Shown here one piece after another: positions 20,829 to 49,826 of a stretch of 64,000 bases of DNA (within the stretch, counting starts at the first letter, position 1; each line of letters opens with the position of its first letter). Under the pieces are notes generated by a model. That model was not told where the DNA came from. It was given only the letters and a program-made list of their open reading frames with translations, and did not search any database. The stretch is from IMG/VR virus record IMGVR_UViG_3300009148_000002, positions 10,993 to 74,992 of that record; one strand, given 5' to 3'. The DNA is from a virus (Duplodnaviria > Caudoviricetes). The translations under genes were made by a program, and so were the position numbers.

Positions 20829-20960
20829 GTTCTTTGAGAGCGGGGGAGTCAATTGCTTGCATGAACGTGATGCAGGTCGGAGTGCAAGACGCCGACGGCA
20901 AAATTGTCACGGCTGCATTAAAAACAGCCAGCTTGAGTAACCGCCCCGCTCTCAGGGAAC
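20829..20960 (+). ncRNA. putative structured RNA unit D1
   Basis: 17-bp closing stem GTTCTTTGAGAGCGGGG / CCCCGCTCTCAGGGAAC (2 G.U) enclosing hairpins TGCAT/ATGCA, GTCGG/CCGAC, GGCTG/CAGCC. Confidence 0.6.
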
Positions 20961-20969
20961 ACCTGAGAT

Positions 20970-21060
20970 GTTCTTTGAGTGCTGGTGGCTAAGTTGCTAC
21001 TCCATCGCGGTAGGTTCGTCTCAATGCCTCCAACGCGATAGCCGCCAGCGCTCAGAGAAT
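20970..21060 (+). ncRNA. putative structured RNA unit D2
   Basis: 22-bp closing stem GTTCTTTGAGTGCTGGTGGCTA / TAGCCGCCAGCGCTCAGAGAAT (4 G.U) with inner ATCGCG/CGCGAT stem. Confidence 0.6.
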
Positions 21061-21062
21061 AA

Positions 21063-21257
21063 ATGAAAACATTTGAAATCATCGCGGCTAACGGCAACCG
21101 CTACAAAATTGTTGCCGACCACTATGTTGTTGGAGGCAGTAAAGAATTCGTCACAAATCGTGACACAATTTATTTCTACGCGGAGGACGGCACCGTTGCG
21201 GCCACGGCTGTCACAAGGAATGTTGTGCTTATAGCACCACTCGGCGAAATAACATGA
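21063..21257 (+). CDS. hypothetical protein
   Basis: First ORF after D2; coupled to next ORF. Confidence 0.55.
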   Translation: MKTFEIIAANGNRYKIVADHYVVGGSKEFVTNRDTIYFYAEDGTVAATAVTRNVVLIAPLGEIT

Positions 21258-21448
21258 ACTCCTACCGCTGCAACGTGTGCAAGAAAGTCGTGAAGCGAGA
21301 TAGCACCAAGCTGTGGATTAAATCGGTGTGCGCTAGCGGCGGCACATGCGGGTGGTCGAGGCTCTACCGGCTCGCGCCCAATGCCGCGAGACTATGGAAA
21401 AGGAATGATGCCGCGATAGCCAAAAAGTTTAACGCGGTCGCTTTTTGA
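21254..21448 (+). CDS. hypothetical Cys-containing protein
   Basis: ATGA overlap; CNVC...C...C. Confidence 0.5.
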   Translation: MNSYRCNVCKKVVKRDSTKLWIKSVCASGGTCGWSRLYRLAPNAARLWKRNDAAIAKKFNAVAF

Positions 21449-21449
21449 A

Positions 21450-21788
21450 ATGAAGAAGCACAACTTAAAAAATCTCGCGCCGAAGATCGCCACAAATATC
21501 AAGCAGTGCGGAAACGTTACCGCCTGCTCACCAAATCAGCCAAGCGCGGCGATACTGGCAAATGTGTTTGGCATTAACTGGAAGAAGATGAACGAGGCGA
21601 ACGCAAGGCGTCGAAAAAGGCGACCTATCGGCGCACTTGGGTTGTATGATTTTCTGACATGGAGTGGGCGTTGTGAAGATGTGAAGAAAGCTATGAAGGC
21701 TCTCAGGCAATTCAAGAAACCGACAGCGGAAATCCACTTCGACAAAGACGTCTATCCCGACGGCGTGATCTGCCGGTGGAAGTATTGA
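21450..21788 (+). CDS. hypothetical protein
   Basis: Tightly packed plus-strand cassette. Confidence 0.5.
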   Translation: MKKHNLKNLAPKIATNIKQCGNVTACSPNQPSAAILANVFGINWKKMNEANARRRKRRPIGALGLYDFLTWSGRCEDVKKAMKALRQFKKPTAEIHFDKDVYPDGVICRWKY

Positions 21789-21789
21789 A

Positions 21790-21990
21790 ATGAACATCCG
21801 AATCCAACACGAATACGCCATGTACTTGGTTCGTGAATTAAACTACGGAATGAACTGGAAGTTTCAACCGAGTTATTACGCGAAGCTAAATGCGAGACGC
21901 GAGCGCCGCAATCCAAACCGTCGCCAGCCGTGGTTTGGCGACAAGCGCAACGCCGCGTGGAAGTCGCGATTCTATTTCAAATACGCTTGA
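21790..21990 (+). CDS. hypothetical basic protein
   Basis: Tightly packed plus-strand cassette. Confidence 0.45.
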   Translation: MNIRIQHEYAMYLVRELNYGMNWKFQPSYYAKLNARRERRNPNRRQPWFGDKRNAAWKSRFYFKYA

Positions 21991-22037
21991 CGGATGTGCC
22001 GGTTTTGAGCAAGACAAAGCAACAGTAAGGCTGAATA

Positions 22038-22559
22038 ATGAGAAGTGAAAGAGTCAGACTGGCTATCGTAGCAGCCATTGAAGACGGATTAAAATACAAG
22101 GATGGAAAGGTTATTTCTCCATTTGGCAGGGTGCTTTCACCGTATCTAATGCGTAATGGTTATTACGGCATTAACATCTGTTCCCGTCTTGTAAAGGTGC
22201 GTATTCCATTTGGAAGACTTGTGTGTTGGTTGGTTCACGGGCCTCCGCCTTCTGATAAGCACGATGTCGATCACATTGACAGGAACAGTGCGAATAATGC
22301 GCCTTCAAATCTCCGATGGTTACTTCACCGAGACAACCTTGAGAATATGCGAAACAAAGATGCTCACAGGGAAGCTATGCGCCATGTCGGTGAGAAAAAT
22401 CACAGCGCCAAACTGACCGATGTATCTGTGTTGGCTATTCGCACGTCCTTCAACAAAGGCGATAGAATTAAGGACTTAGCCATCGCGCATAATGCGTCAC
22501 CGCAAGCCATCATCGGTGTCGTTTATGGACGCGCATGGAAGCATGTGGTGAGCGCATGA
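22038..22559 (+). CDS. HNH endonuclease with C-terminal HTH-like domain
   Basis: RLVCWLVHGPPP...DVDHIDRNSANN..SNLRW....N; NHSAKLT...V.AIR tail. Confidence 0.88.
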   Translation: MRSERVRLAIVAAIEDGLKYKDGKVISPFGRVLSPYLMRNGYYGINICSRLVKVRIPFGRLVCWLVHGPPPSDKHDVDHIDRNSANNAPSNLRWLLHRDNLENMRNKDAHREAMRHVGEKNHSAKLTDVSVLAIRTSFNKGDRIKDLAIAHNASPQAIIGVVYGRAWKHVVSA

Positions 22560-22603
22560 CGACGATTGCGGTGCTGTTTGGACACTGACTCGCGAGGTTG
22601 GAA

Positions 22604-23446
22604 CTACCTCCACAAACCCGGAAAACCAGCACCGCCTTGGAACTGAGCTTTCCAGATGTCGAATATTGTCGGGCCGGCTTGTTGTAGATTTGGCTGGACG
22701 GCAGATGTGGGCGGCAGCACTGGTGCGTCAGAATACAGGTCGTTTGACTTCAAAGCAGCCGGACCGGAAAGTATTGGAGGTAAACCTATCTGATTTTGTG
22801 GTGTGGTCGCAGTGACGCCTGTGGCCGGCGTGGTAACTGCACCAGAAGCAGGAGGCATCTGATTCTTCAACGGATTGAACTCAATGCCAAAATTCTTCGC
22901 CGCTTTATCCAATGCGTCCAGCTTGGCTTTCTTTTCCGCAAAAGCTTCCGACAACGCGTACCATTTCTTGTTCAAAACCGGGTCTGCATTTATCCGAGCG
23001 CGTCCAGTTGTGGTCTGAGAAAGTGCAGCGATTGGCGTCAATTCTCGACGGATTACATCAAGCTCACCTTCAAGGATCGGTTTCTGAATGTGATACTGAT
23101 TGTTGAAATCCTCGCGCTGGCTCATCCAAGTGAGATTGTCCACGTCACGCGCCGTCGGCCTCTCAGCCTGCTTTCTCAAGATGTCCAGTTGCGTGTCGCG
23201 CTGCCGGTTCTCAACCACGGCCTGAGCCTGCCGATCCGCCCTGTCGCGTTCAGACAGCGATAGCTGCGTCATCAGGCGTTGGTTCTCAGCATCGAGGCGC
23301 TGTTTCTCAAGGCGATTACGCGCCAGCAAGCTAAGGAATTGCTGTTCCGATTGGCTTCTTGCGTCACGAGCAGCCCGCGTGCGTTCCGCGTCAGAATTGA
23401 CGAGCGGAATCGAACCACCGTTCGGGCCTGTGTAAAAGTAATCCAT
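22604..23446 (-). CDS. putative internal virion (ejection) protein
   Basis: Gln/Arg coiled coil; position upstream of the giant gene. Confidence 0.5.
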   Translation of the reverse strand: MDYFYTGPNGGSIPLVNSDAERTRAARDARSQSEQQFLSLLARNRLEKQRLDAENQRLMTQLSLSERDRADRQAQAVVENRQRDTQLDILRKQAERPTARDVDNLTWMSQREDFNNQYHIQKPILEGELDVIRRELTPIAALSQTTTGRARINADPVLNKKWYALSEAFAEKKAKLDALDKAAKNFGIEFNPLKNQMPPASGAVTTPATGVTATTPQNQIGLPPILSGPAALKSNDLYSDAPVLPPTSAVQPNLQQAGPTIFDIWKAQFQGGAGFPGLWR

Positions 23447-23448
23447 GC

Positions 23449-24429
23449 TTAGAATACGGGCGTTGAATTAGCCCACGGATAGGATGCCGGAGCGCCGCCA
23501 CCACCATTGTTCCGAGAAAGCATCGCCGCGAGCATCTGCATTAGTTGTGCGTTGTTCCCTCCGCCTCCTGCACCTCCGCCTCCGCCCATGCCGCCGAGCA
23601 GGCTACCGATTCCTCCACCTCCACCGCCTCCACCACCCATCATTCCATAAAGACTCATCCCTGTGTCCACGGCGGAATTTAGGCTGGTATCCACCGCCTT
23701 GAGCGCACCCGACCACCGCTCGCCAGCACCCTTCGGTTGCACCCAACTGAGCAGGTTGTTTTTGTTGACGTTCACAATTCTGTCGAGGTTCGCCAACTTG
23801 TTCGCCAAGCTTTGATCCGTGACTTGCATCGGCATCAGAGTTCTGCCGGCCAACGCATTCAGGATTTCTGTCGGCTGGCCGATAGTGGATTTCTTCAACA
23901 GCAAGTCGGATAGCCGGTTGGCCTGCCCTGTGCCGTAGGAAGTGTTGATGGCGTTCGTCAGGTAAGGCGCAAGCTCACTGGAAAGCCGGTTGGCAGCATT
24001 GCCTTCAAGGATCGTCTCGTAACTGCCAGGAGGCGCTGCCGGTATGCCTAGGTTGGCGTAGGAGATTTTGCGAGCGCGTTCGCGTGCGGCGGCTGCCGGG
24101 CCTTGGATGTCCGTCGAAAACAGATTGCGCCAAAGCTCGATGTTCTTTCCGAGTTCAGCCGTGGGATCGTAGCCCGCATTGCGCAGGCTTGTCAGCCAGC
24201 TAATGTCCGATTGCGCCAGATCGCCAGCTTGGCCAGCCGTGTTTCCGATGGCTGAACGGTACGCGCCAAGATCAGCCGTCCGTTGCGCTAGCTCATCGCG
24301 GAAAGTCGGGTGAATCTGTCGAAGCGTGTCGCTGGCCAGCGGATCAATCCAATGGCGAATCGGGTCTTTCTCGCCCGGCCTGTCCACCAGCGATCCGATT
24401 ACCTCGCCAAGATTGAAAATCTGTGACAT
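23449..24429 (-). CDS. putative DNA pilot/ejection protein
   Basis: Ala/Asn/Leu-rich with poly-Gly C-terminal region; position. Confidence 0.55.
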   Translation of the reverse strand: MSQIFNLGEVIGSLVDRPGEKDPIRHWIDPLASDTLRQIHPTFRDELAQRTADLGAYRSAIGNTAGQAGDLAQSDISWLTSLRNAGYDPTAELGKNIELWRNLFSTDIQGPAAAARERARKISYANLGIPAAPPGSYETILEGNAANRLSSELAPYLTNAINTSYGTGQANRLSDLLLKKSTIGQPTEILNALAGRTLMPMQVTDQSLANKLANLDRIVNVNKNNLLSWVQPKGAGERWSGALKAVDTSLNSAVDTGMSLYGMMGGGGGGGGGIGSLLGGMGGGGGAGGGGNNAQLMQMLAAMLSRNNGGGGAPASYPWANSTPVF

Positions 24430-24440
24430 ATCAGATCATC

Positions 24441-24668
24441 TTATGACCTTCCTTCGCGCAATGCAAGCAACCATTGTTGCAACAATTCCTGCGTGTTATC
24501 GCGCACTCGTTTCTGTTCGGCGTTGAATTCGTCCACGGTTTGTTGCAGTCCAGCAAAGCGATCCGTCATGGAACGCGGAAATTTTAGGATCGGCGCTGGC
24601 GGCAGGTTGAACTCGCGCAAGTTTTCCTTGCTCACCGTTAGCCGCCGCATGTTGAGTGGGAGAGGCAT
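24441..24668 (-). CDS. hypothetical virion-associated protein
   Basis: Directly upstream of ejection genes. Confidence 0.5.
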   Translation of the reverse strand: MPLPLNMRRLTVSKENLREFNLPPAPILKFPRSMTDRFAGLQQTVDEFNAEQKRVRDNTQELLQQWLLALREGRS

Positions 24669-24670
24669 AG

Positions 24671-24937
24671 TTAGCAGGTGCCTGAGTCATCTTTGTGCAC
24701 TGCGTATATTTCTTTGAACAAGCTGCGAATTTCTTCCTCAGTAAATTCGTATCTCGAAACTGTAAAGCCAGAAGCGGAGTCCCATCCAACAATTGGGTCT
24801 GATTCGTTGGAGTACAAAACCTCGTAAACCCAATGATTCCATTTGATTGGTTTAACATGGTTCGCCGCAAACACACCGCCAACGGCAGCCGCAGCGCCTC
24901 CGAACAGTTTGGTGAAGAAGTTACGACGGGTTAGCAT
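24671..24937 (-). CDS. small protein with twin-arginine signal-like N-terminus
   Basis: MLTRRNFFTKLFGGAAAAVGG matches (S/T)RRxFLK plus hydrophobic core. Confidence 0.6.
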   Translation of the reverse strand: MLTRRNFFTKLFGGAAAAVGGVFAANHVKPIKWNHWVYEVLYSNESDPIVGWDSASGFTVSRYEFTEEEIRSLFKEIYAVHKDDSGTC

Positions 24938-25173
24938 TTGTCTCTTTCAGCCACAAGGCGATTAAATCTAATACGCAAATACTCCTGAGCTACTCGGTTC
25001 ATAGCCATGTCAAACCTAGCAAGTGGTGAAGCTCCGCAAGCCCACACATTTGCATCAGGCCGGTAAACCGGAACGGCTTGAGCAACAGGCGCGGCATCCG
25101 GCCACGCAATCGGCAGAGTTACAACGGACGCAGCAGCAACGGCTGACTTTTTGATGAATGCTCGGCGGTTCAT
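24931..25173 (-). CDS. small protein with twin-arginine signal-like N-terminus
   Basis: MNRRAFIKKSAVAAASVVTLPIAW. Confidence 0.6.
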   Translation of the reverse strand: MNRRAFIKKSAVAAASVVTLPIAWPDAAPVAQAVPVYRPDANVWACGASPLARFDMAMNRVAQEYLRIRFNRLVAERDKC

Positions 25174-25487
25174 TTCCTCTCCATTGTCACCTTGTAAGCA
25201 AGGTCGAGCAATTCATCACTATCGAGTTTCGGCTCAACCGGCTCCACGGCGAACGAATTGGGGTCGTGCGTGTTGCTTATTTCTATGGGAGGCATTTCAA
25301 ACATTCCGCCCATTGCAAGATGCCGGCACAGCTTGTCGAAATCTTCGCCTATTCGAGTGCACGCCTCTCTCTGTATTCGTTCGCCTATCACATGATCCGT
25401 GGAACTAAACGCCCGACCTTTGCCCGTCTCAAATTCCGCAATGAGCCGCCTCGCTTTGTCGAGTTGAGCCTGTAGGCCGTCTTTCAT
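25170..25487 (-). CDS. hypothetical protein
   Basis: Coupled overlap in accessory cassette. Confidence 0.55.
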   Translation of the reverse strand: MKDGLQAQLDKARRLIAEFETGKGRAFSSTDHVIGERIQREACTRIGEDFDKLCRHLAMGGMFEMPPIEISNTHDPNSFAVEPVEPKLDSDELLDLAYKVTMERK

Positions 25488-25488
25488 T

Positions 25489-25773
25489 TTAGCGCGGGAT
25501 GAAAATAACAGCGCTGTCGTGATCCTGCATCACCACAACAAGCGCAACCCACTCTCCGTAGGTAAGGTGCTTTGGATTGTCTGTTTGCTTACACCAAGCC
25601 GCATATCCAGCCCTTAGATTCGCATTGTATTCCTCCGTGAAAGAGTGAAACAGGTAGAAGAAAACACAGACCATCACAACCAGTCCGGCTACAACGATGA
25701 CCTCAATCTCCTTCCCACGCCACCAGCTTCTTTTATCTCGCAAGCGATTGAATAATATGTCTTGATAAGTCAT
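25489..25773 (-). CDS. membrane protein
   Basis: Clear TM helix VIVVAGLVVMVCVFFYLF; TTGACA at 25807-25802 upstream. Confidence 0.6.
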   Translation of the reverse strand: MTYQDILFNRLRDKRSWWRGKEIEVIVVAGLVVMVCVFFYLFHSFTEEYNANLRAGYAAWCKQTDNPKHLTYGEWVALVVVMQDHDSAVIFIPR

Positions 25774-25803
25774 AGCGCAATTAAGAGCCTGCTGTAGTTG
25801 TTG

Positions 25804-26256
25804 TCAAGTCCATTCTCCCTGCGCTCGCCTCGCGTTAATCACCATCTTAGACAAGCACGCATTCCCGCCCGTGATTTCAGACTGGCCTTCTACGGTGTCG
25901 ATCCAGATTCGGACAGCCAAATACCGCCCGCGATAGAATGTGTTGTAACGCGCCGTCAGATTTGGGCGCGTGTTGTTCGCTGCGTGTTCGGCGGCGGATT
26001 GCTCGGTCAGGCACGTCAACTCCTGTTCGCCAATGTCCTTCCATGTAACGCAGCGCGGTTGTGCGCCGTAAGCCATCTGAGCGAGCAACCGATTCGGCGT
26101 GGTTTGTTCCGCCGCCTCGAAATCCACCAGCACTTTGTTGATCGTCTTCTCAACATTCGTGCCGTAATCGTTCATATCTTGCTGAATCATCGACGAATAA
26201 CCGTCGAGCACGTAACGAGCACCATCCGGCCCGCGTGTCCAGTCTGTGCAGATCAT
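25804..26256 (-). CDS. C-terminal-domain-like fragment of the tail stabilisation protein
   Basis: KTINKVLVDF...FYRGRYLAVRI resembles the C-terminus of P22 gp10-like proteins; ATG 26256 (ATGA overlap, GGAGG upstream). Confidence 0.55.
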   Translation of the reverse strand: MICTDWTRGPDGARYVLDGYSSMIQQDMNDYGTNVEKTINKVLVDFEAAEQTTPNRLLAQMAYGAQPRCVTWKDIGEQELTCLTEQSAAEHAANNTRPNLTARYNTFYRGRYLAVRIWIDTVEGQSEITGGNACLSKMVINARRAQGEWT

Positions 26257-27533: not shown

Positions 27534-27535
27534 AT

Positions 27536-35881: not shown

Positions 35882-35936
35882 AATGTTGTTCGTGCGCGGC
35901 TGACTTCATATCAGCTTTTCTAATGAACAACATTAT
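35880..35936 (-). promoter_or_regulatory. stem joining scaffold stop to capsid start
   Basis: Perfect 12-bp inverted repeat ATAATGTTGTTC / GAACAACATTAT plus inner GCTGA/TCAGC hairpin. Confidence 0.6.
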
Positions 35937-37396
35937 CTACCCTGCATTCTCGTTTGAAAGACGTCTTCCCAAGTTTTTGCTTTTTCGGTGTTCGGCTTTT
36001 GAAGTGCGTCGATCTGCGTTCTTCCTGTAACCGGAGAAGGCGACTGCTGCCTTGCTGGCGCTGGCGTTTCTTTATGTTCGCCGTTTCCGTTCTGCGTCGT
36101 TTGTGTCGCAGGTTTCTTTTCCCATCCTCGCGCTTTTGCCATTGACTCGATCTGTTTCTCGGTTTCCGACACGTAATCCTTCAGATTGTTGGCGAGTTTT
36201 TCAGGAATGGCGTCGAGCAGTTTGTCGCGATCCAAGAACCAGTATTTCGCCTTGTTCGCAGGATTTTCACCCATCAGCCTGTGGTATTCTTCCCATGTCG
36301 CGAACCTTCTGCCAGCGTTGTCGAGTTGCTGTTCGGCGGGCAAAGACTTGAGTTGACTCTCAATGTCGGCGACTTGTTTTTGAAACTGTTGAAACGACTC
36401 GGATTTAACATCAGCGTGGCCTTCAAAAACCTTGATGATTTCCTGAGCCATCTGGCCGGCAAATTTGCTTGTGGCTATTTTCAACCCGACGATTACCGGG
36501 TCGGCGGCGTGCTTCTCGCGCACTTTGGCCTCATCGGCAGCGACCTCGAATAACTCAGGGTCAATTAGATTTAGGGTTTTAGCAGCGGCATTATTTGCGG
36601 CCTCTTTCAGTGCTGGCTCCAATTCGGCGCGTGTTGATTTCTTCTTGAGTTCGTCAACATCCGCCAGCTTCGCCCTGGTTTCTTCCAACTCTTTTTTGAG
36701 TGGCTTTTCGCGTAGCGCGGCGCGGGCGTCATCGTAATCGTCATCGTCGTAACGAGGCTCGATGCTGTCGAAAAATTCAGCGTGTTCGTCGGCATCTGGA
36801 TCGTACGTCTTTCCAGGATTCTCTTTGACCCATTGCTTGCGGTGAGTCTCCGCTTCCTTCACGGCGTCGAGATACTTGGCGGACAGCCCGGCGTTGCGCT
36901 GCGGAGAAAGAGCTTCCATCTCTTTGAAGATGTCGAAGCGTCGGCGTTGCGCGGACGTGAGCGAGTCTTCCGGCTTTGGCGCATCGGCGGTTTTCTTCTC
37001 GTCGGCCTTCGTCGTTCGGTCGGTGATCGCGGCAGCGGTTTCGGCGGCGACGCGAGAGGCGATTCCTTCAACGTCAATCTCAGGTTTCTTCTTGGCTTTC
37101 GCGGCAGGCTTGGCCGGTTCATCTGGCTTTTTCTCAGGCTCGGCTTCCGCCTTTGTTTCCAGTTTTTCCGCCTCAGCCTTCTCTGGCTCAACCTTCGCCT
37201 TTTCCGGCTCCGCCTTCTCTTTCTTGGATGGCCGCTTGCCGGCAATCATCGCCAGCAGGTTTTCCGTCACTTCCTTGGAAATCTCCTGTGGCGCGAGCTT
37301 CTTTTCAGGCTCTTTAACGGTAGCGGTAGCATCCGTTTTTGCGGGCACGGCGGCTGTTTGTGTCTTGGCTAGTTCTTTCTCGATAACGGCGGGCAT
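35933..37396 (-). CDS. capsid scaffolding protein
   Basis: Glu/Lys/Ala/Pro-rich, low hydrophobicity, immediately before capsid gene. Confidence 0.7.
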   Translation of the reverse strand: MPAVIEKELAKTQTAAVPAKTDATATVKEPEKKLAPQEISKEVTENLLAMIAGKRPSKKEKAEPEKAKVEPEKAEAEKLETKAEAEPEKKPDEPAKPAAKAKKKPEIDVEGIASRVAAETAAAITDRTTKADEKKTADAPKPEDSLTSAQRRRFDIFKEMEALSPQRNAGLSAKYLDAVKEAETHRKQWVKENPGKTYDPDADEHAEFFDSIEPRYDDDDYDDARAALREKPLKKELEETRAKLADVDELKKKSTRAELEPALKEAANNAAAKTLNLIDPELFEVAADEAKVREKHAADPVIVGLKIATSKFAGQMAQEIIKVFEGHADVKSESFQQFQKQVADIESQLKSLPAEQQLDNAGRRFATWEEYHRLMGENPANKAKYWFLDRDKLLDAIPEKLANNLKDYVSETEKQIESMAKARGWEKKPATQTTQNGNGEHKETPAPARQQSPSPVTGRTQIDALQKPNTEKAKTWEDVFQTRMQGR

Positions 37397-42917: not shown

Positions 42918-42936
42918 AAATGTTCAACCGAGCGGG

Positions 42937-43296: not shown

Positions 43297-43497
43297 AGTT
43301 GCCTTGCGCCCTAGCTGGCGGGATTGGTTTCTGTGGCCATTGCAATAAGCAAATACGCCGAATAGGTGTAGGCCATCAAAATGACGACGGTTATCAAGAT
43401 TCTAAACATAATTGTCGCTTTTACGACGACTCACACTAGTTTCTCCTTACTGCACCAACAATGGGTAGTTTACCCCACGGCACCAGTCACCGCTCAT

Positions 43498-44177: not shown

Positions 44178-44184
44178 TGACGTT

Positions 44185-44212
44185 AGTTTGCCTAATGTTA
44201 GGCTTGCGTCAA
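44185..44212 (-). promoter_or_regulatory. leaderless promoter with palindromic spacer element
   Basis: TTGACG-16-CAAACT-7 nt-ATG; contains the same CCTAACATTAGGCAA as 33632-33646. Confidence 0.55.
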
Positions 44213-44758
44213 GTGAAATTCTCAAGAACATGGGCAATGCCGAACGGTGACACCTTCAGCGTGCCTCCAATCAATGACTTCGTGCAGTCGTATCTGACCA
44301 ACTCGAAAGTCTCAATAGACCCGTTCGCACGAAACAAGCGATGGGCAACGCACACCAACGACCTGAATCCCGCGACGGAAGCCGAGCACCATATGGATGC
44401 CGAAAAGTTCCTGCTGATGCTAGGTTCACAAGGCGTGAAAGCCGACCTGATAATCTTCGACCCGCCATACAGCCCGCGCCAGATCAGCGAGTGCTATAAA
44501 AGCATCGGTATGGAGGTTGGCATGAAGGAAACACAATCTGCGCTGCTATATCAGCGCGTTCGCGACGCAATCGTGCCAGTGGCAACCGAAGACGCAATCG
44601 TTTTGTCATTTGGATGGAACACGGTCGGTATGGGTAAGCGCCACGCATTTGAACAAATCGAAATAATGCTCTGCTGTCATGGCGGTGCACACAATGACAC
44701 GATCTGCCTCGCGGAGCGAAGACTGCCGCAACTCCAATCGGCGATTGATTTGCCTTAG
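44213..44758 (+). CDS. orphan amino (N6A/N4C) DNA methyltransferase
   Basis: GTG start KFSRTWAMPN, IDPFA motif I, IIFDPPYS motif IV, HGGAHNDTI. Confidence 0.85.
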   Translation: MKFSRTWAMPNGDTFSVPPINDFVQSYLTNSKVSIDPFARNKRWATHTNDLNPATEAEHHMDAEKFLLMLGSQGVKADLIIFDPPYSPRQISECYKSIGMEVGMKETQSALLYQRVRDAIVPVATEDAIVLSFGWNTVGMGKRHAFEQIEIMLCCHGGAHNDTICLAERRLPQLQSAIDLP

Positions 44759-44761
44759 TCA

Positions 44762-45925
44762 ATGCCTAAGCACCAACCAACCAGCCGAGTCACCACATTC
44801 ACATCCGACGGCTGCCGGGAACTCTGGCTCATCAACGGCGAGGACTACTGCCTGCCGGTGTATGCCACGCCGATGAAGATGCCCGGATTCGAGCAACGTT
44901 ACGCATGGGTTCAATCCGCCTCCAGCACGCTCTCACCCATGCAGCACATGAAGATTCTGGCCACATTCGCGCCGCACAAGCAAAACTCGGAACCAGAATT
45001 CCACTACCTGTTTTGGGACAAGCTCGAAAAGCTCTGCGTCAAGGCACCCGGCGTCGAGCCGGATTACTACAAACGCTGGCCGAACGACGCACCACAACTG
45101 GCGGACAAACCGATTGATGTCGCGCTGGACGGCGAAGTGATCCCAACCGACGCGGCCAACTGGATCAAGTTCATGGCATCGCGCACGTCCATCGCCGATT
45201 ACTCAACGCTCAAAGCCTTCTGGAAAGAACAGAATCGTTGTGCATTAGAGTATCTAATAAACGAGCAAAAGCCTTTGCACCTTGGGTTTTGTCAGATATT
45301 CCAGATGCCGTATCGCAACAACTGGCTGGCGATCCTCACCGCTCGGTTTTCCAGCCTTGCGGCCAATCTGGACAAAGTTAAGCGTGAGTTGATTGATCCT
45401 TACCTGATCGAGAACGGATTCACTCAGGAATTGAACAAGACTTGGTTTGCTGCCATCGACCGAAAGAAGCATTTCATCTACTGGTCGCTGTGCATCCTGC
45501 CGGCGAAAGCGTGGTATTATCACAGCATCACAACGGAACAGCGGCGCAGGGCGTCAATGAGCGCGTCCAAGTACTGCGAACGATGGATGGGTTATGTTAA
45601 GCGCAACTACAAATACATTCTGGCGGCGTTTCGGCACTATGGCAATGAAGCGAGCAGGCCGGGCGCTCGCATTGGCGAAAGCCAGGATGGTCGTCTGCCG
45701 GTGCTTATTCCAGATATACGGCGTGGCCGAGTTATGCCGTACTGCCCTAAAGGTTATGACGTTGAAGTTTGCATCGAAGGCGAACCGAGCGAGCCGCCGC
45801 TTATGGTTCCGTCGGTTGAAGACGTGCCGCAGTTGCCAGATGTTCCATGTGGAACATTGGACGTGCGGGAAGCCGGGCGACTTGGCGATGGACCCGGAGA
45901 CGAACAAACCGTTTCTCAATCCTGA
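44762..45925 (+). CDS. hypothetical protein (387 aa)
   Basis: Long clean ORF; no recognised motif. Confidence 0.65.
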   Translation: MPKHQPTSRVTTFTSDGCRELWLINGEDYCLPVYATPMKMPGFEQRYAWVQSASSTLSPMQHMKILATFAPHKQNSEPEFHYLFWDKLEKLCVKAPGVEPDYYKRWPNDAPQLADKPIDVALDGEVIPTDAANWIKFMASRTSIADYSTLKAFWKEQNRCALEYLINEQKPLHLGFCQIFQMPYRNNWLAILTARFSSLAANLDKVKRELIDPYLIENGFTQELNKTWFAAIDRKKHFIYWSLCILPAKAWYYHSITTEQRRRASMSASKYCERWMGYVKRNYKYILAAFRHYGNEASRPGARIGESQDGRLPVLIPDIRRGRVMPYCPKGYDVEVCIEGEPSEPPLMVPSVEDVPQLPDVPCGTLDVREAGRLGDGPGDEQTVSQS

Positions 45926-46054
45926 GACTGGTCGGCCAATGTCGCTTGGGTGCTGGTGTCCGGTTTACGAGAAGGCGCGTTACAAGCGGGCGCAGTGTTG
46001 GGCGCGTGAAAATGGACTTGACTTTGGGTGGGTGGAATAATAGTCTGATCTGCC

Positions 46055-46534
46055 GTGACCGACGCCATCGAAATCTCAACCTCGCAGCCGGTGTTCAAAA
46101 CCGACCGCGAGGCGCGTGCGGTGTGTCGCAAGCTTGGGCTTGGGTTCTTCAAGGCTGAGAATGCGAAGTCGCTCAAGCGATACGGTGAATATTTGGACTC
46201 ATTGGGAGCGGCCCACGTTGGTCGCGGCATTGTGTTCCTGACTCTGGATCAAGCTCACCAGCTTCGTAAGAGGATCGAAGAAGAAGACTTTGATTCCATG
46301 CCGGCTGGCAGTGAAATTCGCATGGTCGCCGCCAAACATTGCATCGACCTTCTGAAGCTTCAGTCGGAACTCGCCAACCAACTCGCCGAACGCACGCCTG
46401 CGCCCAAGCCTAACGACGGCAAGATGCCGGTGCCGTCCTTCGCTCCCGGCACCACCATCACGCCGATCTCAGGCAACCAGCAAGTCAACCTCATCGTCCA
46501 AGGCCAGCAACCCGAAACAAAGGCAATCCAATGA
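46055..46534 (+). CDS. hypothetical protein
   Basis: GTG start, coupled to next gene. Confidence 0.6.
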   Translation: MTDAIEISTSQPVFKTDREARAVCRKLGLGFFKAENAKSLKRYGEYLDSLGAAHVGRGIVFLTLDQAHQLRKRIEEEDFDSMPAGSEIRMVAAKHCIDLLKLQSELANQLAERTPAPKPNDGKMPVPSFAPGTTITPISGNQQVNLIVQGQQPETKAIQ

Positions 46535-46743
46535 CAACATTTGAAATCTACAAAGACCGAAAGAAGGAGTGGCGCTGGAGGGCCAAGCGCAAAGGCAGGA
46601 TCGTGGCAGATAGCGGCGAAGGATATAAACGTCGAAACGCCTGCGTGACCGCGCTTCGCCATCTCGCGGTTGACATCTTGAATGGCAATCAGAGCGTGAT
46701 TATTGGTGGAGTTCGTCAAGGAGACGATTTCCTCTACGAATGA
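46531..46743 (+). CDS. YegP/DUF1508-family protein
   Basis: FEIYKD...EWRWR....G.IVADSGEGYKRR..C... Confidence 0.85.
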   Translation: MTTFEIYKDRKKEWRWRAKRKGRIVADSGEGYKRRNACVTALRHLAVDILNGNQSVIIGGVRQGDDFLYE

Positions 46744-47300
46744 AATCACTGTCATTAGCACTTCTAATCCTTCTCTGCGGCTGCCTCGGCGGCGTCCAAG
46801 AGCGCTCTGGCGGAACATCGGTTGCTGCCGCTGAAAAGCTGGCATCGCAAAACAATGCCCTGTTAAATCGCACCATTGACGGACAGAAGACGCCGCCCGC
46901 GCCGAACGTCACTGTGACAGGTTCGAGCAATTCAATCGCCGTGGCGGTCAATCCGCAGCCAACGAACACGTATCGGGAAACCATCACGCTCAACACCGCG
47001 TCGAATCAGTCCGCCTCTCAGGAATTGGAAAGCGCGTCGTTCTTCAAAAAGAAGCTGCCGATGTCCGTTGCGCTGGTCCTGTTCGGTGTTGGGTTTCTGA
47101 TCCTGTTCGTAGTGATTTGGCTCTGGAGACGAAGCAGCGTTGCCGTCAACGAAGCCTACAAACTGGCGGATGAAACCTTTGCGTCAATCATACGAGAGCG
47201 GCGTAATCGCGCTATGGTGTCCACAGACGCGGCTGAGATGTCTCGGCTGAATGCCGACGTGGCAGAGCTTGAATCGCATCGCGGAAGGCTGGCCCGCTAA
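46740..47300 (+). CDS. lipoprotein with C-terminal TM helix (unimolecular spanin-like topology)
   Basis: MKSLSLALLILLCGC lipobox-like; TM VALVLFGVGFLILFVVIWLW. Confidence 0.6.
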   Translation: MKSLSLALLILLCGCLGGVQERSGGTSVAAAEKLASQNNALLNRTIDGQKTPPAPNVTVTGSSNSIAVAVNPQPTNTYRETITLNTASNQSASQELESASFFKKKLPMSVALVLFGVGFLILFVVIWLWRRSSVAVNEAYKLADETFASIIRERRNRAMVSTDAAEMSRLNADVAELESHRGRLAR

Positions 47301-47500
47301 TGTACACCGTCACCGTAAATTACGACAAGAACTGCACCAGATGTGGCGATGTCGGCGCAACGGCAAGCGGACTGTGTTTGCGGTGCGTTACTGACAGCTT
47401 GACGAAGAAAGGCTTCTCTCGCCCTCTGCCAGTCGAAACCACAACCAAGAAAGTCCTCTCACATGAGCTACCTCCAAAAGAAAGCCGTACTGGTAACTGA
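47300..47500 (+). CDS. small CxxC protein
   Basis: CTRC...CLRC. Confidence 0.45.
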   Translation: MYTVTVNYDKNCTRCGDVGATASGLCLRCVTDSLTKKGFSRPLPVETTTKKVLSHELPPKESRTGN

Positions 47501-47858
47501 CATGGTTGGATTCGGGCGTCGCATCCGCGCGCACGGCCCGCTGAAAACCAAGCAACACATTCACAACCTGCGTTGGAAGATCGGGCCAATCATCCGTCGC
47601 AACGGCGGGCGGGTCGTGAAATACGACGGTGACGATTCGTTCAGCGTGTTTGACCGCATTGGCGACGCCTACGCTGCCGCGCTCGAATTGCGCGATCAAC
47701 TCGGCCCTATCTCTATCGGCATCGGCTACGGCAAGCTGCTCGTTTTGAAGCGCGACGCATGGGGTTACGAACTCAACCTTGCATCGAAGCTTGGCGAGGA
47801 CAAGGCCGGCCCGAACGACATCCTACTCACCGTCGCTGCAAAAAAGGCGATGAGGTAA
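47463..47858 (+). CDS. stand-alone class III nucleotidyl (adenylate-type) cyclase domain
   Basis: VTDMVGF, VKYDGDD, ISIGIGYG, RDAWG..LNLASKL. Confidence 0.85.
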   Translation: MSYLQKKAVLVTDMVGFGRRIRAHGPLKTKQHIHNLRWKIGPIIRRNGGRVVKYDGDDSFSVFDRIGDAYAAALELRDQLGPISIGIGYGKLLVLKRDAWGYELNLASKLGEDKAGPNDILLTVAAKKAMR

Positions 47859-47942
47859 TTTCCGCCGCCGTGTTCTCGTTCGACTCCGCTGGTTTTTCTG
47901 ATTGAGCCAGTGACGTGAATTAGACGCTGGCGGCGGACTTTT

Positions 47943-48125
47943 ATGAACTCTCTTGAGCGGTTTATCCAAGCAGCCGAATCCGATGAGTGTGAGGCTATGA
48001 ACTGGCTTCAGTCGAATGGAGTAATTAGCGACAACTGCGTTACTGCGAAAGATGTTTGCGAATCCGACTGTCGGAAGGCCATTGAAGCGCTAACCCAAGG
48101 CGATCAAAAAACACTGATCCTGTAA
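47943..48125 (+). CDS. hypothetical protein
   Basis: 60-aa ORF. Confidence 0.45.
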   Translation: MNSLERFIQAAESDECEAMNWLQSNGVISDNCVTAKDVCESDCRKAIEALTQGDQKTLIL

Positions 48126-48361
48126 AACTCGCGTGCGTCAATCATAGGAACCTCCACGCCTTTGTCATACTTCTCGCCGTAGTAAATCTTCCACGTTATT
48201 TTATACCAAGTCACCAAGTCGGTCGAGCCTTCCAAAAGATACACGCGGTTGATCTTGATGTTGGACGGCCTGATAACGTTCGCGTCGCCAGCGCGGATGA
48301 TTTCAATGCGCGGCGGGCCGACCGGAGCCGCCAGCAACATCGCGATGATAAAAACAGGCAT
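48104..48361 (-). CDS. small secreted protein
   Basis: Signal-like N-terminus; YLLEGSTDLVTW motif typical of PVC-type secreted domains. Confidence 0.5.
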   Translation of the reverse strand: MPVFIIAMLLAAPVGPPRIEIIRAGDANVIRPSNIKINRVYLLEGSTDLVTWYKITWKIYYGEKYDKGVEVPMIDAREFYRISVF

Positions 48362-48430
48362 CGGTTTTATATGCAGACAGTTACAGAGAGTTCTTTTTCA
48401 TTTTTACGGGCTGTTGGTGGGCTTGTCGTT

Positions 48431-48667
48431 CTACAGCACCCGCTCGCTGTGTTTGATTTCGACGCATCGGATTTTGGGTTTTTCCAGCCAGTCCTTAAAG
48501 AACCATCTGGCATATTCAAGTGCCTGCGATTGGTTGTCGCGCTGCCCGACGAGGCATTCCCATTTGGCGTTCGGTTTCTGCCACTCGACCGCGTATGCTG
48601 TAGAACACTTCATGGAGCGAACGGCGACCCGCGCCGTTCGAGAGTTGGTCTTGGATTTCTTGCTCAT
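48431..48667 (-). CDS. hypothetical basic protein
   Basis: C-terminal 78 aa of track ORF 48431-49189; preceded by a coupled 15-codon leader ORF at 48711. Confidence 0.5.
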   Translation of the reverse strand: MSKKSKTNSRTARVAVRSMKCSTAYAVEWQKPNAKWECLVGQRDNQSQALEYARWFFKDWLEKPKIRCVEIKHSERVL

Positions 48668-48717
48668 ACATTTTTCTCGCCGTCGCTCATGGCGGCGTTG
48701 TAAAACTTCATTGACAA

Positions 48718-48801
48718 AGGCTATCACCGTCGGCGGCGGAGTCAAACATTTTTCGCGCAAATGATTTTGTTGCTTGACAATCACTGCGGCGTTGATACCT
48801 T
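48718..48801. promoter_or_regulatory. divergent leaderless promoters
   Basis: Minus: TTGACT-16-TAGCCT-6 nt-ATG 48711; plus: TTGACA (48774)-16-TGn TACCTT-7 nt-ATG 48809. Confidence 0.6.
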
Positions 48802-48808
48802 CGCGTGA

Positions 48809-49096
48809 ATGACAGCAGCCGAAAAGAGAATCGAGATCGCAGAGTTGGATGAATGGGTCAGAGGTTCTGTTGACTCTGTGTGGTGGTCGAAGCTCTGGAA
48901 AGACAGTCTCAGTTACACTCACGCAACGCAGCACGATCTTCCAGACTACCTCAACTCCCGCGACGCGATTGTGCCGGTGCTTGAGAAGCAGCCATTGGGC
49001 ATCCGCTTGTGGTTTATCGAGAACACGGACATTTTCACAACGCCCGAAGAACTGTGCGACGCGCTGATTCGTGAAACCGGCAAGTGGAAAGACTAA
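48809..49096 (+). CDS. hypothetical phage protein
   Basis: LPDYLNSRDAI.PVLEK pattern common in phage small proteins. Confidence 0.65.
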   Translation: MTAAEKRIEIAELDEWVRGSVDSVWWSKLWKDSLSYTHATQHDLPDYLNSRDAIVPVLEKQPLGIRLWFIENTDIFTTPEELCDALIRETGKWKD

Positions 49097-49107
49097 CAAA
49101 ATGAGAT

Positions 49108-49303
49108 GTTCTTTGAATGTGAATCGGACGGAGTATTCAACGGCCAGAAATGGCGGTAAACTTTTCCGTGAGTTTGTCACGGACAACAACGGGCTTGCTA
49201 GCTACCTGCCCGTTTGGACAAAGCCAACAAGTTGCGCTGATTCGATTTCAGCGGGGCGGAATTGCTCAGAGGTACGACGAACTCCGATTCACATTCAGCG
49301 AAC
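49108..49303 (+). ncRNA. putative structured RNA unit D3
   Basis: 21-position stem GTTCTTTGAATGTGAATCGGA / TCCGATTCACATTCAGCGAAC enclosing GCCA-GAAA-TGGC, TCCGTGA/TCACGGA, AACGGGC/GCCCGTT, TTGG/CCAA, CGCTGA/TCAGCG. Confidence 0.65.
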
Positions 49304-49365
49304 ACCAAACAAAATGGTTGACTCCAAAATCAGGTTGGGTATGTTGGTTGCGTTCGGATGCTGGA

Positions 49366-49600
49366 GTGAAAACCAGCTAACTGTAAGTCTCGAACGTAAG
49401 ACCACTTTTGGCCGTTCAGTCATGCGAAGCCGCGAGGCTCGCACCGCAGTTAGCGGTTTTTCACGACTGAGCGGCCTTTCCATTTTTAAGGCACCGAACC
49501 GTGAAACGGCTTCATGCCATACGGTCGCCGGAACATGCGCGGCTCCTTCGCGAAGGATGCTGCGGCTAGGGCACGCGAGGAAACAAACATCTCACCGGCC
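49366..49600 (+). ncRNA. putative structured RNA with pseudoknot/switch topology
   Basis: Stems 49366-83/49447-64 and 49410-21/49465-76 cross; GNRA hairpins (GCGA, GAAA) and TCCTT/AAGGA hairpin follow. Confidence 0.55.
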
Positions 49601-49620
49601 AACGTGGAAGGAAAACGACA

Positions 49621-49826
49621 GTGCTTTGAACTGCTGGGCCTCGTGGTGCAATGTAAAGACACGGGCTAGTGTAAAGATACGGGTGTCGGCGTGCTGCTGC
49701 CCCGGCTTGCGGACATTTCGCCGCAAGACTCATCGTTGTGATGAGGTTTCCAGCCTGCCAAACGGGACACAACACCGATGCGGCTTGCGAGTTCAAATCC
49801 CGCCGAAGGCCGCCAGTTCAGAGCAT
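49621..49826 (+). ncRNA. unit D4: tRNA-like shell with large insert inside a boxA-like stem
   Basis: 13-bp stem GTGCTTTGAACTG/CAGTTCAGAGCAT; GGCCTCG...D-arm-like; GCGAG-TTCAAAT-CCCGC T-arm; CGAAGGCC-G-CCA. Confidence 0.5.

Follow-up and report, generated by a model that had tools for sequence, protein, structure and literature searches.

Stem-clamped units in a soil phage genome

The window analyzed here, a 64,000-nt stretch of viral DNA, carries four structured units, D1 to D4, together with flanking elements (Table 1). It belongs to the 75-kb genome of an uncultured soil phage. An earlier note had described all four units, each closed by a long stem that opens with a boxA-like motif, and they were found at the positions it gave. 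The clamps of D1 (17 bp) and D2 (22 bp) could be re-read from the sequence, as could that of D3 at 49108–49303, where 21 positions contain a single U×C mismatch and one extra outer pair is present besides. For D4, the reported 13 bp (GUGCUUUGAACUG/CAGUUCAGAGCAU) stood, but the stem proved longer: outward of the clamp, the internal loop is followed by a 9–10-bp stem (AAGGAAAAC/GUUUUCCUU), and the full arms lie at 49608–49643 and 49804–49839. D4 encloses a 180-nt cargo with a T-arm-like GCGAGUUCAAAUCCCGC, while the D3 core contains an invariant loop, UUGCUAGCUACC. The 15-mer TGAGATGTTCTTTGA, noted earlier as common to the surroundings of D2 and D3, is exact at 20964 and 49102. GTKCTTTGA occurs five times in the window versus 1.6 expected, four of the copies being the units themselves; because at least five copies also appeared in 4 of 100 shuffles, the count alone is just mildly unusual and the significance lies in the stems.

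Table 1 Features of the phage window
Feature	Position	Strand	Description
Sigma-70-like promoter	20795–20822	+	TTGACA, 16 nt, TGnTATGCT; 10 of 12 consensus matches, with TG
D1	20829–20960	+	132 nt; clamp GUUCUUUGAGAGCGGGG/CCCCGCUCUCAGGGAAC; multibranch cargo
Alternative hairpin	20950–20968	+	7 bp, then UGUUCUUU; takes the D1 clamp 3′ strand
D2	20970–21060	+	91 nt; clamp includes four G·U pairs
Open frame	49068–49910	+	ATG 49101, GTG 49071; spans D3, M1, M, D4 and tail
D3	49107–49304	+	196-nt unit, 22-position clamp, conserved multibranch RNA core
M1	49350–49485	+	Stem-enclosed modules; 18-nt arms 49366–49383/49447–49464; 12-bp hairpin
M	49492–49607	+	Conserved three-hairpin RNA element immediately 5′ of the D4 stalk
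D4 with full stalk	49608–49839	+	Outer stem, 2×2 loop and clamp 49621–49826
Tail after D4	49840–49900	+	Pyrimidine-rich; terminator-like hairpin (CCCCUACUCUAAGGGGUUGGGG and U-rich run); next gene ATG 49923
D5 candidate	58302–58372	+	21-bp stem with GUACUUUGA/UCGAGGUAC; outer GGAUAAAGCC/GGUUUUAUCC; then UUUUU

D1 begins at about +1, because the putative promoter identified by consensus scan ends at 20822, in agreement with the transcription start predicted there before; in a related locus (L258), the D3 homolog is preceded by a similar TTGACA-N11-GATGGTAT. At the other end of D1, the alternative hairpin looks like a terminator but is absent from the MFE structure of D1 and D2 folded together. 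The 3′ strand of the D2 clamp adjoins the ATG (21063) of the first early gene, and a 32-codon ORF (20968–21066) has its AUG 2 bases 5′ of this clamp and, at its end, overlaps the next gene by ATGA. Searching the D4 tail against Rfam gave weak, partial hits in which a terminator-like hairpin is aligned; in relatives, the conserved tail after the D4-type stalk is longer. The D5 candidate folds better on the plus strand (z = −8.3) than on the minus strand (z = −4.3), and no coding signal was found at the locus for the overlapping minus-strand ORF. It may simply be a terminator.

These arrangements would also suit stems that serve as attenuators, terminators or ribosome-binding-site sequestrators of downstream genes rather than as processing sites. 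The D2 clamp stops only 2 nt short of a start codon, the alternative hairpin with its U-run overlaps the D1 3′ strand, and GGUUUU(A)(U)CCUUU runs close both the D4 stalk and D5 opposite an A-rich 5′ arm, like bidirectional terminators. Such switches, however, have no need of 50–180 nt of cargo with its own covarying structure (see below), no match to ligand- or protein-sensing families was obtained, and the D1 clamp is much stronger than the alternative hairpin. We consider regulation of this kind unlikely.

On the plus strand, the units fold more stably than shuffled sequences, as expected from the earlier proposal of structured RNAs: D1 reaches −60.4 kcal/mol (z = −6.0), D2 −47.4 kcal/mol (z = −8.0) and D3 −81.5 kcal/mol (z = −6.6). 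D4 (−80.3 kcal/mol) has its clamp in the MFE structure, but its z-score of just −1.9 is marginal. Against shuffles, the whole 804-nt tract from D3 to D4 scores z = −4.6, and D1 and D2 folded jointly score −7.9. The minus strand folds more poorly (z = −4.6 for D1 and −3.7 for D2). The argument that nearly all non-Watson–Crick pairs are G·U and, hence, favor plus-strand RNA was borne out by nine G·U and no A·C pairs in the D1–D4 clamps; over the first 20 positions of 15 units including homologs, the ratio is 39 to 11. Shuffle z-scores, the excess of G·U over A·C and compensatory changes in homologs together support selection on the units as RNA structures of the plus strand.

The same strand bias bears on the idea that the inverted repeats act as DNA-level sites, such as integron attC-like elements or transposon ends. 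A candidate integron integrase and attC-like sites were flagged elsewhere in the genome on first reading, the ends are conserved around a variable interior as in attC sites, and cargo has been exchanged between phages. In attC sites, RYYYAAC lies at the 5′ side and GTTRRRY at the 3′ side. The phage units show the opposite layout, with GTT at the start and AAC at the end as outermost pairs; this, the better folding and G·U excess of the plus strand and the conserved RNA structure in the cargo make a DNA-level function very improbable.

Homologs, exchangeable cargo and an open frame

A spurious 279-aa ORF spanning D3 to D4 served as the entry for homolog searches, which retrieved about ten homologous contigs from phages. 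D1 and D2 are backed by thermodynamics and paralog comparison, because the search found no homologs of either. D3 has homologs in L258 (83% identity), L263 and L264. In its clamp and core, 16 of 46 pairs changed on both sides, a number reached by none of 500 shuffles, and a control with the partner slid gave at most four. Between D3 and D4, M1 is 75% identical to positions 3048–3178 of L257, with an L267 match also spanning it, while M occurs in more than ten loci at 73–87% identity. M covaries as well (12 of 31 pairs changed on both sides in alignment A1; 0 of 500 shuffles equal) and belongs to no Rfam family. Compensatory changes in homologs are present in the clamp, the D3 core (16 pairs) and M (12 pairs). 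The units themselves had no Rfam match at gathering or permissive thresholds.

The first nine clamp pairs join 5′ G-K-N-C-Y-U-U-G-A to 3′ U-C-A-R-N-G-N-M-Y. Among 15 units, position 1 is G-C, G·U or A-U, position 2 U-A or G-C, position 3 U-A, G-C or C-G, position 5 U-A, C-G or U·G and position 6 U·G (12 times) or U-A (three times), with positions 4, 7 and 8 nearly invariant.

Three points go beyond the first reading: exchangeable cargo, tRNA-like cargo and an open frame across D3–D4. Orthologous D4-type stalks enclose other cargo in L257, L259, L260, L261, L265, L267, L268 and L270, L263 places a D3-type core inside a D4-type stalk, and L257 has an additional 90-nt unit between M1 and M. To judge from sequence, the cargo is exchangeable between phages while the stalk is retained. 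The stalk also appears dispensable for the cargo, because the D3 core of L264 does without the motif and instead has a 9-bp stem flanked by two terminator-like hairpins. Cargo in three loci is tRNA-like. That of L257 has an acceptor stem GGGCAUG/CAUGUCC and T arm GCUGGUUCGAAUCCAGU; L268 repeats this layout, followed by U-CCA; and L260 features A-CCA, an anticodon loop CUCAUAA and a weak Rfam tRNA match (18.2 bits). The 75-kb phage genome has no tRNA genes.

The frame at 49068–49910 holds only its terminal stop; the two remaining forward frames have 11 and 16. Here and in eight homologous loci (9/9), one frame is open over 576–843 nt in constant phase relative to M, while the other frames contain 4–17 stops; three of the nine loci were found by DNA pattern and, thus, carry no ORF bias. 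It is, therefore, conceivable that D3–D4 is a translated gene or carrier ORF, with the units as palindromic cassettes, inserted and exchanged in frame, whose folding would either be a by-product or put a brake on translation. In line with this, the frame closes at, or close to, the start codon that follows, the lengths of eight D4-type units whose cargo is unrelated are consistently 2 mod 3, and L257 accommodates the extra 90 nt. The sequence itself, however, does not evolve like a gene: third-codon-position excess is absent (19/19/15 variable columns), nonsynonymous changes exceed synonymous ones, and the codon score of −0.087 resembles non-coding frames rather than real genes (0.09–0.27). 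Its product, rich in Arg, Ser and Cys, has no Pfam family, the L264 frame passes through both terminator-like hairpins, and neither target-site duplications nor a transposase were seen. Strong covariation and conserved loops are typical for RNA. A coding or carrier origin, thus, seems doubtful to us; nevertheless, with the frame conserved, ribosomes probably cross the helices, which a simple processing model does not predict.

Comparison with rRNA operons and boxA

PMC10250234, PMC13753749 and PMC3177189 describe boxA as nucleating both the rrn antitermination complex and the leader–trailer helix. In two rrn operons from Bacillota and three from the Chitinophagaceae family, GTTCTTTGA is the core of the 16S–23S spacer boxA; GTTCTTTGAAAA occurs in Sporosarcina and Clostridium 16S–23S spacers, and GTTCTTTGACAT lies 37–51 nt 5′ of 23S in three Chitinophagaceae-family genomes. 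The proposed likeness to rRNA operons, with boxA inside a long processing stem, holds in all seven operons tested (four phyla), where a boxA-type motif forms part of the 5′ strand of a helix with the 23S trailer. In a Verrucomicrobiota genome, too, the motif (GCUCUUUGA/UCAGAGAGC) forms the 5′ strand of the 23S leader–trailer helix; there, GGCUCUUUGAAAACUGCACAC is perfectly paired with GUGUGCAGUUUUCAGAGAGCC, and the position of a U·G wobble is shared with the phage.

The further claim that the phage mimics rRNA leader–trailer architecture is partly supported, by the helix and the boxA core but not by the D4-type motifs. Natural boxA variation covers U or C in position 5 as well as a G in position 8 (PMC3177189), whereas D4 and all orthologs (GUGC, GUCC, GGGC, AUCC and GGGCUUUUA) are off the boxA consensus at positions read by NusB (PMC3177189). 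These changes are matched by compensation on the 3′ strand, which argues for selection on the helix and not on single-stranded boxA. D4-type stalks, having drifted from boxA, probably retain the helix function only.

A reading in which the motif is mainly boxA, the GUUCUUUGA RNA being a candidate NusB/NusE loader for early-operon antitermination or a Nus sink and the stem secondary, has to be weighed against this pattern. G-U-U-C-(U/C)-U-U-G-A in D1–D3, L258, L257a, L263 and the unrelated L321 equals the Bacillota and Chitinophagaceae-family spacer core, and its positions 5 and 8 stay within the natural variation mentioned above. D1 sits at promoter +1, and the 5′ clamp strand is steadier than the 3′ strand, keeping G1, U5 and U6 while partners vary. 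D3 reads AUGUUCUUUGAAU where B. subtilis NusB binds AUGAUCUUUGAAA (PMC13753749). Yet all D4-type stalks alter positions 2–3 (GUG, GUC, GGG or AUC, compensated opposite), which contact NusB base-specifically (PMC3177189) and correspond to GYT in the consensus GYTCTTTAANA (PMC5725501), a gamma-proteobacterial sequence from which the boxA of the host may differ. Moreover, the UUGA part is lost in L268 and L260, where the encoded CCA sits opposite, and a translatable locus would by itself prevent Rho polarity. As the primary function, boxA activity is, thus, possible but rather improbable; Nus loading is plausible in D1–D3 alone, given that the motifs of D4-type stalks diverge from boxA.

Proposed processing stalks around cargo RNAs

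We favor, at a probability of about 0.5, the explanation that the units work as processing stalks of the rRNA type, from which cargo RNAs are released. The closest known counterpart is the RNase III stalk of pre-23S rRNA, likewise a long-range helix formed from the flanks of a structured RNA, with G[CU]UC[UC]UUGA in the basal part of the 5′ strand in the seven operons tested, UCAGAG.. on the 3′ strand and, in the Verrucomicrobiota operon, the U·G wobble placed as in the phage. It differs in enclosing 2.9 kb rather than 50–180 nt. The phage, by contrast, has several stalks, located in mRNA leaders and between genes, with exchangeable cargo, D4-type bases off boxA and a tract open for translation, while rRNA is untranslated.

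Other systems share individual traits. As in lambda nut (boxA–boxB) and rrn antitermination complexes, D1 places a boxA-type sequence just 3′ of an early promoter, and the motif precedes long, poorly translated RNA; unlike at nut, it is embedded in a 17–36-bp helix and lacks an adjoining boxB-like small hairpin, and no N-like protein was identified in the phage. The T7 early region (R0.3–R1.3) and the lambda N leader contain RNase III hairpins between promoter, early genes and cistrons. The phage hairpins are similarly placed, and cutting by host RNase III could shape mRNA ends. T7 sites are simple irregular hairpins, and we know of none with a large conserved cargo or a boxA-like base. The large phage-associated RNAs GOLLD and ROOL and the bacterial Y RNA YrlA resemble the units as structured non-coding RNAs in phages but differ in that the units lack Rfam matches. 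In YrlA, a long stem is joined to a tRNA-like module. The phage stalk instead continues the acceptor stem, and neither an Rsr/TROVE nor an RtcB gene was found in the phage.

In the processing-stalk model, each unit consists of a folded cargo RNA of ~50–180 nt inside a plus-strand leader–trailer helix whose first nine pairs would copy the base of the bacterial 23S rRNA stalk. The long helix (17 to ~36 bp) would close behind each cargo during early transcription. The 5′ strand of D1–D3 matches the widespread spacer boxA core exactly, so that NusB/NusE could load onto this motif as it emerges, shield poorly translated RNA from Rho and tether the strand close to RNA polymerase until the pairing strand emerges, as proposed for rrn operons. 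No RNase III gene was found in the phage genome; host RNase III would cut the helix, leaving cargo RNA with short duplex ends and severing the flanking mRNA. For tRNA-like cargo, the acceptor stem would stack on the stalk with CCA at the junction, and RNase P and 3′ trimming could complete maturation. One guess is that the released cargo RNAs act as tRNA decoys or mimics.

Stem-closed RNA units and their setting

Sequence inspection upheld the four dispersed units D1 to D4 proposed in the earlier note, plus-strand RNAs that are each closed by a long stem (the clamp, or stalk) opening with a boxA-like motif. Stems span 17 to about 36 bp. The prediction that the units fold better than dinucleotide shuffles held for D1, D2 and D3 and more weakly for D4, while the minus strand folded worse in D1 (z -4.6) and D2 (z -3.7). 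The D4 stem proved longer than first reported, with an outer part, AAGGAAAAC/GUUUUCCUU, beyond a 2x2 internal loop, so that its full arms form the longest inverted repeat of the window. BoxA-like motifs occur five times against 1.6 expected; this count alone is only mildly unusual, and significance is carried by the stems.

Coordinates of features in the window, with folding z scores against dinucleotide shuffles
Feature	Coordinates	Strand	Energy (kcal/mol)	z
Promoter-like site	20795			
D1, unit	20829-20960	+	-60.4	-6.0
D2, unit	20970-21060	+	-47.4	-8.0
D1 and D2 folded jointly				-7.9
HNH_3 ORF	22038-22559	+		
Inverted repeat	48428-48443/48591-48606			
279-codon ORF	49071-49910			
804-nt tract	49097-49900			-4.6
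D3, unit	49108-49303	+	-81.5	-6.6
D3 core loop	49196-49208			
M1, stem modules	49350-49485			
M, three-hairpin element	49492-49607			
D4, unit	49621-49826	+	-80.3	-1.9
D4, full stem arms	49608-49643/49804-49839			
Tail after D4	49840-49900			
ORF overlapping D5	57445-58722	-		
D5, candidate unit	58302-58372	+		-8.3

Across the four clamps, nine pairs are G.U and none is A.C, which bears out the proposal that wobble asymmetry favours a plus-strand RNA. A role of the inverted repeats as DNA-level sites is scarcely credible given this asymmetry. Integron attC sites have the core order 5' RYYYAAC ... GTTRRRY 3' and fold as bottom-strand DNA; this identity was considered and rejected, as the units start with GTT and end with AAC as outermost pairs and the wobble asymmetry points to plus-strand RNA. 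One further inverted repeat (GTTCTACAGCACCCGC / GCGTATGCTGTAGAAC) also starts with GTTC and ends with GAAC, and none of its mismatches is a plus-strand G.U pair. The candidate D5 comprises a 21-bp stem (GGAUAAAGCCGUACUUUGACC/GGUCGAGGUACGGUUUUAUCC) followed by UUUUU, with a GUACUUUGA motif and an outer stem resembling that of D4, and folds less well on the minus strand (z -4.3). The minus-strand ORF that overlaps it has no coding signal in 58120-58722. D5 might be another unit, the fifth, or else terminate the plus-strand operon.

The source record (74,992 bp), of which the window covers bases 10993-74992, was rated complete by CheckV, and near-identical DNA is present in rhizosphere and soil metagenomes. 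Contigs from four sequencing runs were identical or nearly so and thus provided neither usable variation nor ends. Among GenBank phages, no match was found to the terminase and a 487-aa protein or by blastn and tblastn, and the N-terminus of a 2281-aa protein retrieved only itself among 5.8 billion proteins. The window contains no tRNA gene according to ARAGORN, and no gene for RNase III, TROVE/Rsr or RtcB was found in the phage; the latter two absences led us to reject a Y-RNA reading. A sigma-70-type promoter-like site (TTGACA-N11-GATGGTAT), of a form also present in the homologous locus L258, ends 7 nt upstream of D1. Start codons across the window (for example, 35933-37396, 41371, 49923 and 60574) have A-rich leaders and almost no Shine-Dalgarno sequences, so that hints on the host conflict. 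Past D1-D2, the early operon includes an ORF of the HNH_3 homing-endonuclease type, and HNH_3 genes also occur near the RNA loci of L257 and L264.

The clamp helix and its rRNA counterpart

Pairing in the clamp was compared across 15 units, with positions counted from the 5' end of the boxA-like motif.

Base pairs observed at each clamp position
Position	Pairs
1	G-C 4, G.U 10, A-U 1
2	U-A 11, G-C 4
3	U-A 6, G-C 7, C-G 2; A-U in D5 candidate
4	C-G 15
5	U-A 11, C-G 2, U.G 1, U x C 1
6	U.G 12, U-A 3
7	U-A 14
8	G-C 13
9	A-U 12

The core, C-Y-U-U-G-A over U-C-A-R-N-G, includes a wobble pair that is conserved, and variation is slightly lower on the 5' strand than on the 3' strand. Compensatory changes occur at positions 1, 2, 3, 5 and beyond, and past position 9 the sequence varies freely with pairing kept. 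Since clamp pairs vary yet stay paired, the helix is selected as a helix. As in a leader-trailer-type helix, the flanks of a structured RNA are paired, with covariation.

BoxA is the NusB-NusE antitermination signal of rRNA (rrn) operons, and its consensus G[CU]UC[UC]UU[AG]A is matched by D1, D2 and D3, all of which read GUUCUUUGA. This string is identical to the spacer boxA core of two Bacillota and three Chitinophagaceae-family rrn operons. D4, reading GUGCUUUGA, departs from the consensus at position 3; its orthologs read GUGC, GUCC, GGGC, AUCC and GGGCUUUUA, with changes compensated by the 3' strand. D3-type orthologs keep GUUC(U/C)UUGA except for L264, which lacks the motif. Across orthologs, boxA is therefore not conserved as a sequence.

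In the rrn operons examined, Sporosarcina and Clostridium carry GTTCTTTGAAAA in the spacer between 16S and 23S, GTTCTTTGACAT lies 37-51 nt upstream of 23S in three genomes from the family of a Chitinophaga MAG, and the motif before 23S is GCUCUUUGA in a Verrucomicrobiota and GCUCCUUGA in an Acidobacteriota genome. In all seven operons, from four phyla, the motif forms the 5' strand of a helix with sequence following 23S, the layout also seen in the phage units. The Verrucomicrobiota helix is a perfect 21-bp duplex (GGCUCUUUGAAAACUGCACAC/GUGUGCAGUUUUCAGAGAGCC) that shares the U.G wobble position and the UCAGAG 3' strand with them. Published boxA sequences agree, namely the gamma-proteobacterial consensus GYTCTTTAANA (PMC5725501) and AUGAUCUUUGAAA of B. 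subtilis, for which NusB binding was shown (PMC13753749). The proposed architectural analogy to rRNA leader and trailer stems is sound, because the motif occupies the 5' strand of the helix in every rrn operon examined and the published consensus concurs.

In a 12-nt boxA, nucleotides 1-8 are contacted base-specifically by NusB-NusE, which tolerates C/U at the base matching clamp position 5 and G/A at that of position 8 (PMC3177189). This variation covers the motifs of D1-D3, L258, L257a, L263 and L321. All D4-type stalks, in contrast, are changed at positions 2-3 (GUG, GUC, GGG, AUC) with compensation opposite, and L268 and L260 lost UUGA altogether. To judge from these sequences, the conserved entity in the D4-type half of the family is the helix. 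Nus loading, hypothetical throughout the family, is plausible on D1-D3. Antitermination, or titration of Nus factors, centred on boxA would fit the D1-D3 motifs; with the D4-type changes, we consider it an unlikely account of the units. A brief literature search on such stalks in phages found no paper, and a search by sequence strings returned primers only. New here would be the reuse of rRNA leader-trailer/boxA architecture for small phage RNAs.

Homologous loci, covariation and exchangeable cargo

The translation of the 279-codon ORF spanning D3 to D4 was searched against 1.84 billion proteins and matched 18 metagenome 'proteins' in short stretches (40-74% identity), whose contigs yielded loci L257-L267. 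A DNA pattern from element M added L268 (the 71-kb IMG/VR contig) and L269-L273 (metagenomes); by this exact degenerate pattern, M-bearing loci are rare, IMG/VR having a single one and JGI/ENA metagenome contigs five. According to blastn, D3 matches L258 (83%), L263 and L264, the 135 nt upstream of D4 that contain M are common to all other loci (73-87% identity), and the 3' strand of the D4 stalk is common to several. At the DNA level, the phage and the 71-kb contig have in common only M and a 95-nt stretch with 94.7% identity (G000 5423-5516, 5.5 kb before the window start, versus G011 4775-4869).

The earlier note had named covariation in homologs as a check, and it was found. Both-sided changes affect 12 of 31 pairs of M (seven sequences; slid partners give 0-3 such pairs) and 16 of 46 pairs of the D3-type RNA (only four sequences; slid controls ≤4), levels that were each reached in 0 of 500 shuffles. 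Seven of the 16 changed D3-type pairs lie in the clamp itself. Judged by these substitutions, the D3 and M loci evolve as RNA. Loops of the D3-type RNA do not vary, notably UUGCUAGCUACC with its palindrome GCUAGC. The 13-nt loop of the core (UUGCUAGCUACCU in the window) has 11 of 13 columns identical in four phages, being kept in L258, L263 and L264; it contains the self-complementary GCUAGC, through which kissing-loop dimerisation could occur. D1 and D2 lack comparative support because the ORF shadowing D1 has no homolog.

Other searches added one locus. Related-locus searches from two single proteins and an IMG/VR scan with a D3-core pattern gave no match, and homologs of the downstream 142-aa gene led to only one unrelated locus with DNA examined, which lacks the motif. 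Scanning IMG/VR for TGAGATGTTCTTTGA returned chance matches only; its matches in GTDB genomes were rejected as rRNA, most being the MutS coding motif GDFYEMFFDDA. GTTCYTTGA-N60-90-TCARRGAAY, describing canonical D2-size units, matched IMG/VR almost entirely by chance, leaving three weaker candidates and one clear unit, L321 (IMGVR_UViG_3300030103_005256, 1782-1873, minus strand of the locus). This 92-nt unit (AGAU|GUUCUUUGAG...CUCAGGGAAU) has a 21-pair clamp, starts with AGAUGUUCUUUGAG as the phage units do and is situated between a terminase-like ORF and the next large one in an unrelated AT-rich phage.

The D4-type stalk, comprising outer stem, 2x2 loop and clamp, is orthologous in the window and in L257, L259, L260, L261, L265, L267, L268 and L270, and the 71-206 nt enclosed are unrelated among these nine loci. 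L263 carries a D3-type core inside a D4-type stalk; between M1 and M, L257 has an additional unit of 90 nt (GUUCCUUGA, 21 pairs, z -6.0); and in L264 the D3 core, with a 9-bp stem only and no motif, sits between two terminator-like hairpins. By sequence comparison, the D4-type stalk is a holder for exchangeable cargo. Downstream of it, before the next gene, a conserved tail (UUAGGAGCG...CAAGGGAGUGCUCCA...UUGGGGGGAUUCCUUUGUUUUC...) is present in L257 (3570-3765), L265, L267, L268 and L270 and shortened in the window.

Three cargoes resemble tRNA. L257 has an acceptor (GGGCAUG/CAUGUCC) and a T arm, L268 shares this layout and continues with U-CCA, and L260 has UGGCGCA/UGCGUCA-A-CCA with an anticodon loop CUCAUAA. 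Their acceptor stems are stacked straight onto the clamp, with the UGA part of the motif opposite discriminator and CCA. We call them tRNA-like only, since acceptor, T-arm and CCA features are present but ARAGORN called no tRNA in 11 loci including them, and the best Rfam match found, L260 to RF00005, scored 18.2 bits, short of the 29 set as gathering score. The D4 cargo has a T-arm-like GCGAGUUCAAAUCCCGC, with no clean acceptor stem that could be drawn. A tmRNA as D4-type cargo was rejected (no ARAGORN call, no plausible tag). The 64-kb window gave no gathering-threshold match to Rfam families (GOLLD, ROOL, Y RNA, tmRNA, riboswitches or ribozymes), and at E up to 10 both regions and the homologous loci gave chance-level matches only.

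An open frame across the RNA chain and the proposed processing route

One frame only is stop-free over 576-843 nt of the RNA chain in the window and eight homologous loci (9/9), keeping a constant phase to M and ending at or near the start of the next gene; other forward frames contain 4-17 stops. Three of the eight loci came from the DNA pattern and carry no ORF bias. Eight D4-type units with unrelated cargo measure 206, 146, 134, 149, 134, 71, 131 and 164 nt, all equal to 2 modulo 3. These properties would suit a carrier gene that is translated and holds palindromic cassettes in frame. This account is quite improbable: substitutions, codon usage and protein family provide no coding signature for the 279-aa product, with a codon score of -0.087 (0.09-0.27 for real genes), no Pfam match, variable columns of M at 19/19/15 by codon position (no third-position excess) and more nonsynonymous than synonymous changes. 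A 32-codon ORF over D2, which starts at an AUG in GAGAUGUUC and overlaps the first early gene at ATGA, could at its length be due to chance. It is unusual for a covarying RNA locus to stay free of stops in one frame, and this property could be the categorically new part. We would guess that passage of ribosomes has been retained because it prevents Rho polarity or provides translational coupling to downstream genes without Shine-Dalgarno sequences.

We favour, at about even odds (roughly 0.5), a reading of the units as processing stalks, because the helices have RNase III length, the enclosed RNAs have conserved folds of their own, CCA-ended tRNA-like cargo sits at the junction and the structure of the rRNA stalk is copied. 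To our knowledge, the latter is the one cellular structure known to work as a processing stalk. Regulatory hairpins are a very unlikely explanation for stalks around such folded RNAs. In the processing reading, RNase III, which the phage does not encode, would cut the stalk helices. What the analysis demonstrates is that the structures exist and are conserved, that cargo is exchanged and that rrn operons offer a parallel; cleavage, Nus loading and any function of the cargo are inferred.

More tentatively, and with considerable doubt, we envisage a soil-phage family with a dual-use locus, in which an rRNA-style stalk chain holding exchangeable structured RNAs would be threaded by a carrier frame constrained only to stay open. 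Cassettes would be swapped in frame, and ribosome transit, instead of or besides boxA/Nus, would keep Rho from acting on the RNA operon and link this operon with Shine-Dalgarno-less downstream genes before cargo excision. From the open frame one may learn how an operon shields RNA that looks untranslatable. Should the proposed processing be real, phages would have copied the cell's route of rRNA transcription, folding and excision to deliver small RNAs of their own, with a conserved holder that accepts any structured RNA. The family would then provide a natural test bed for boxA-bound Nus complexes as chaperones of long-range RNA helices and a route to phage non-coding RNAs, including tRNA-like molecules as possible decoys for host tRNA-targeting defences.
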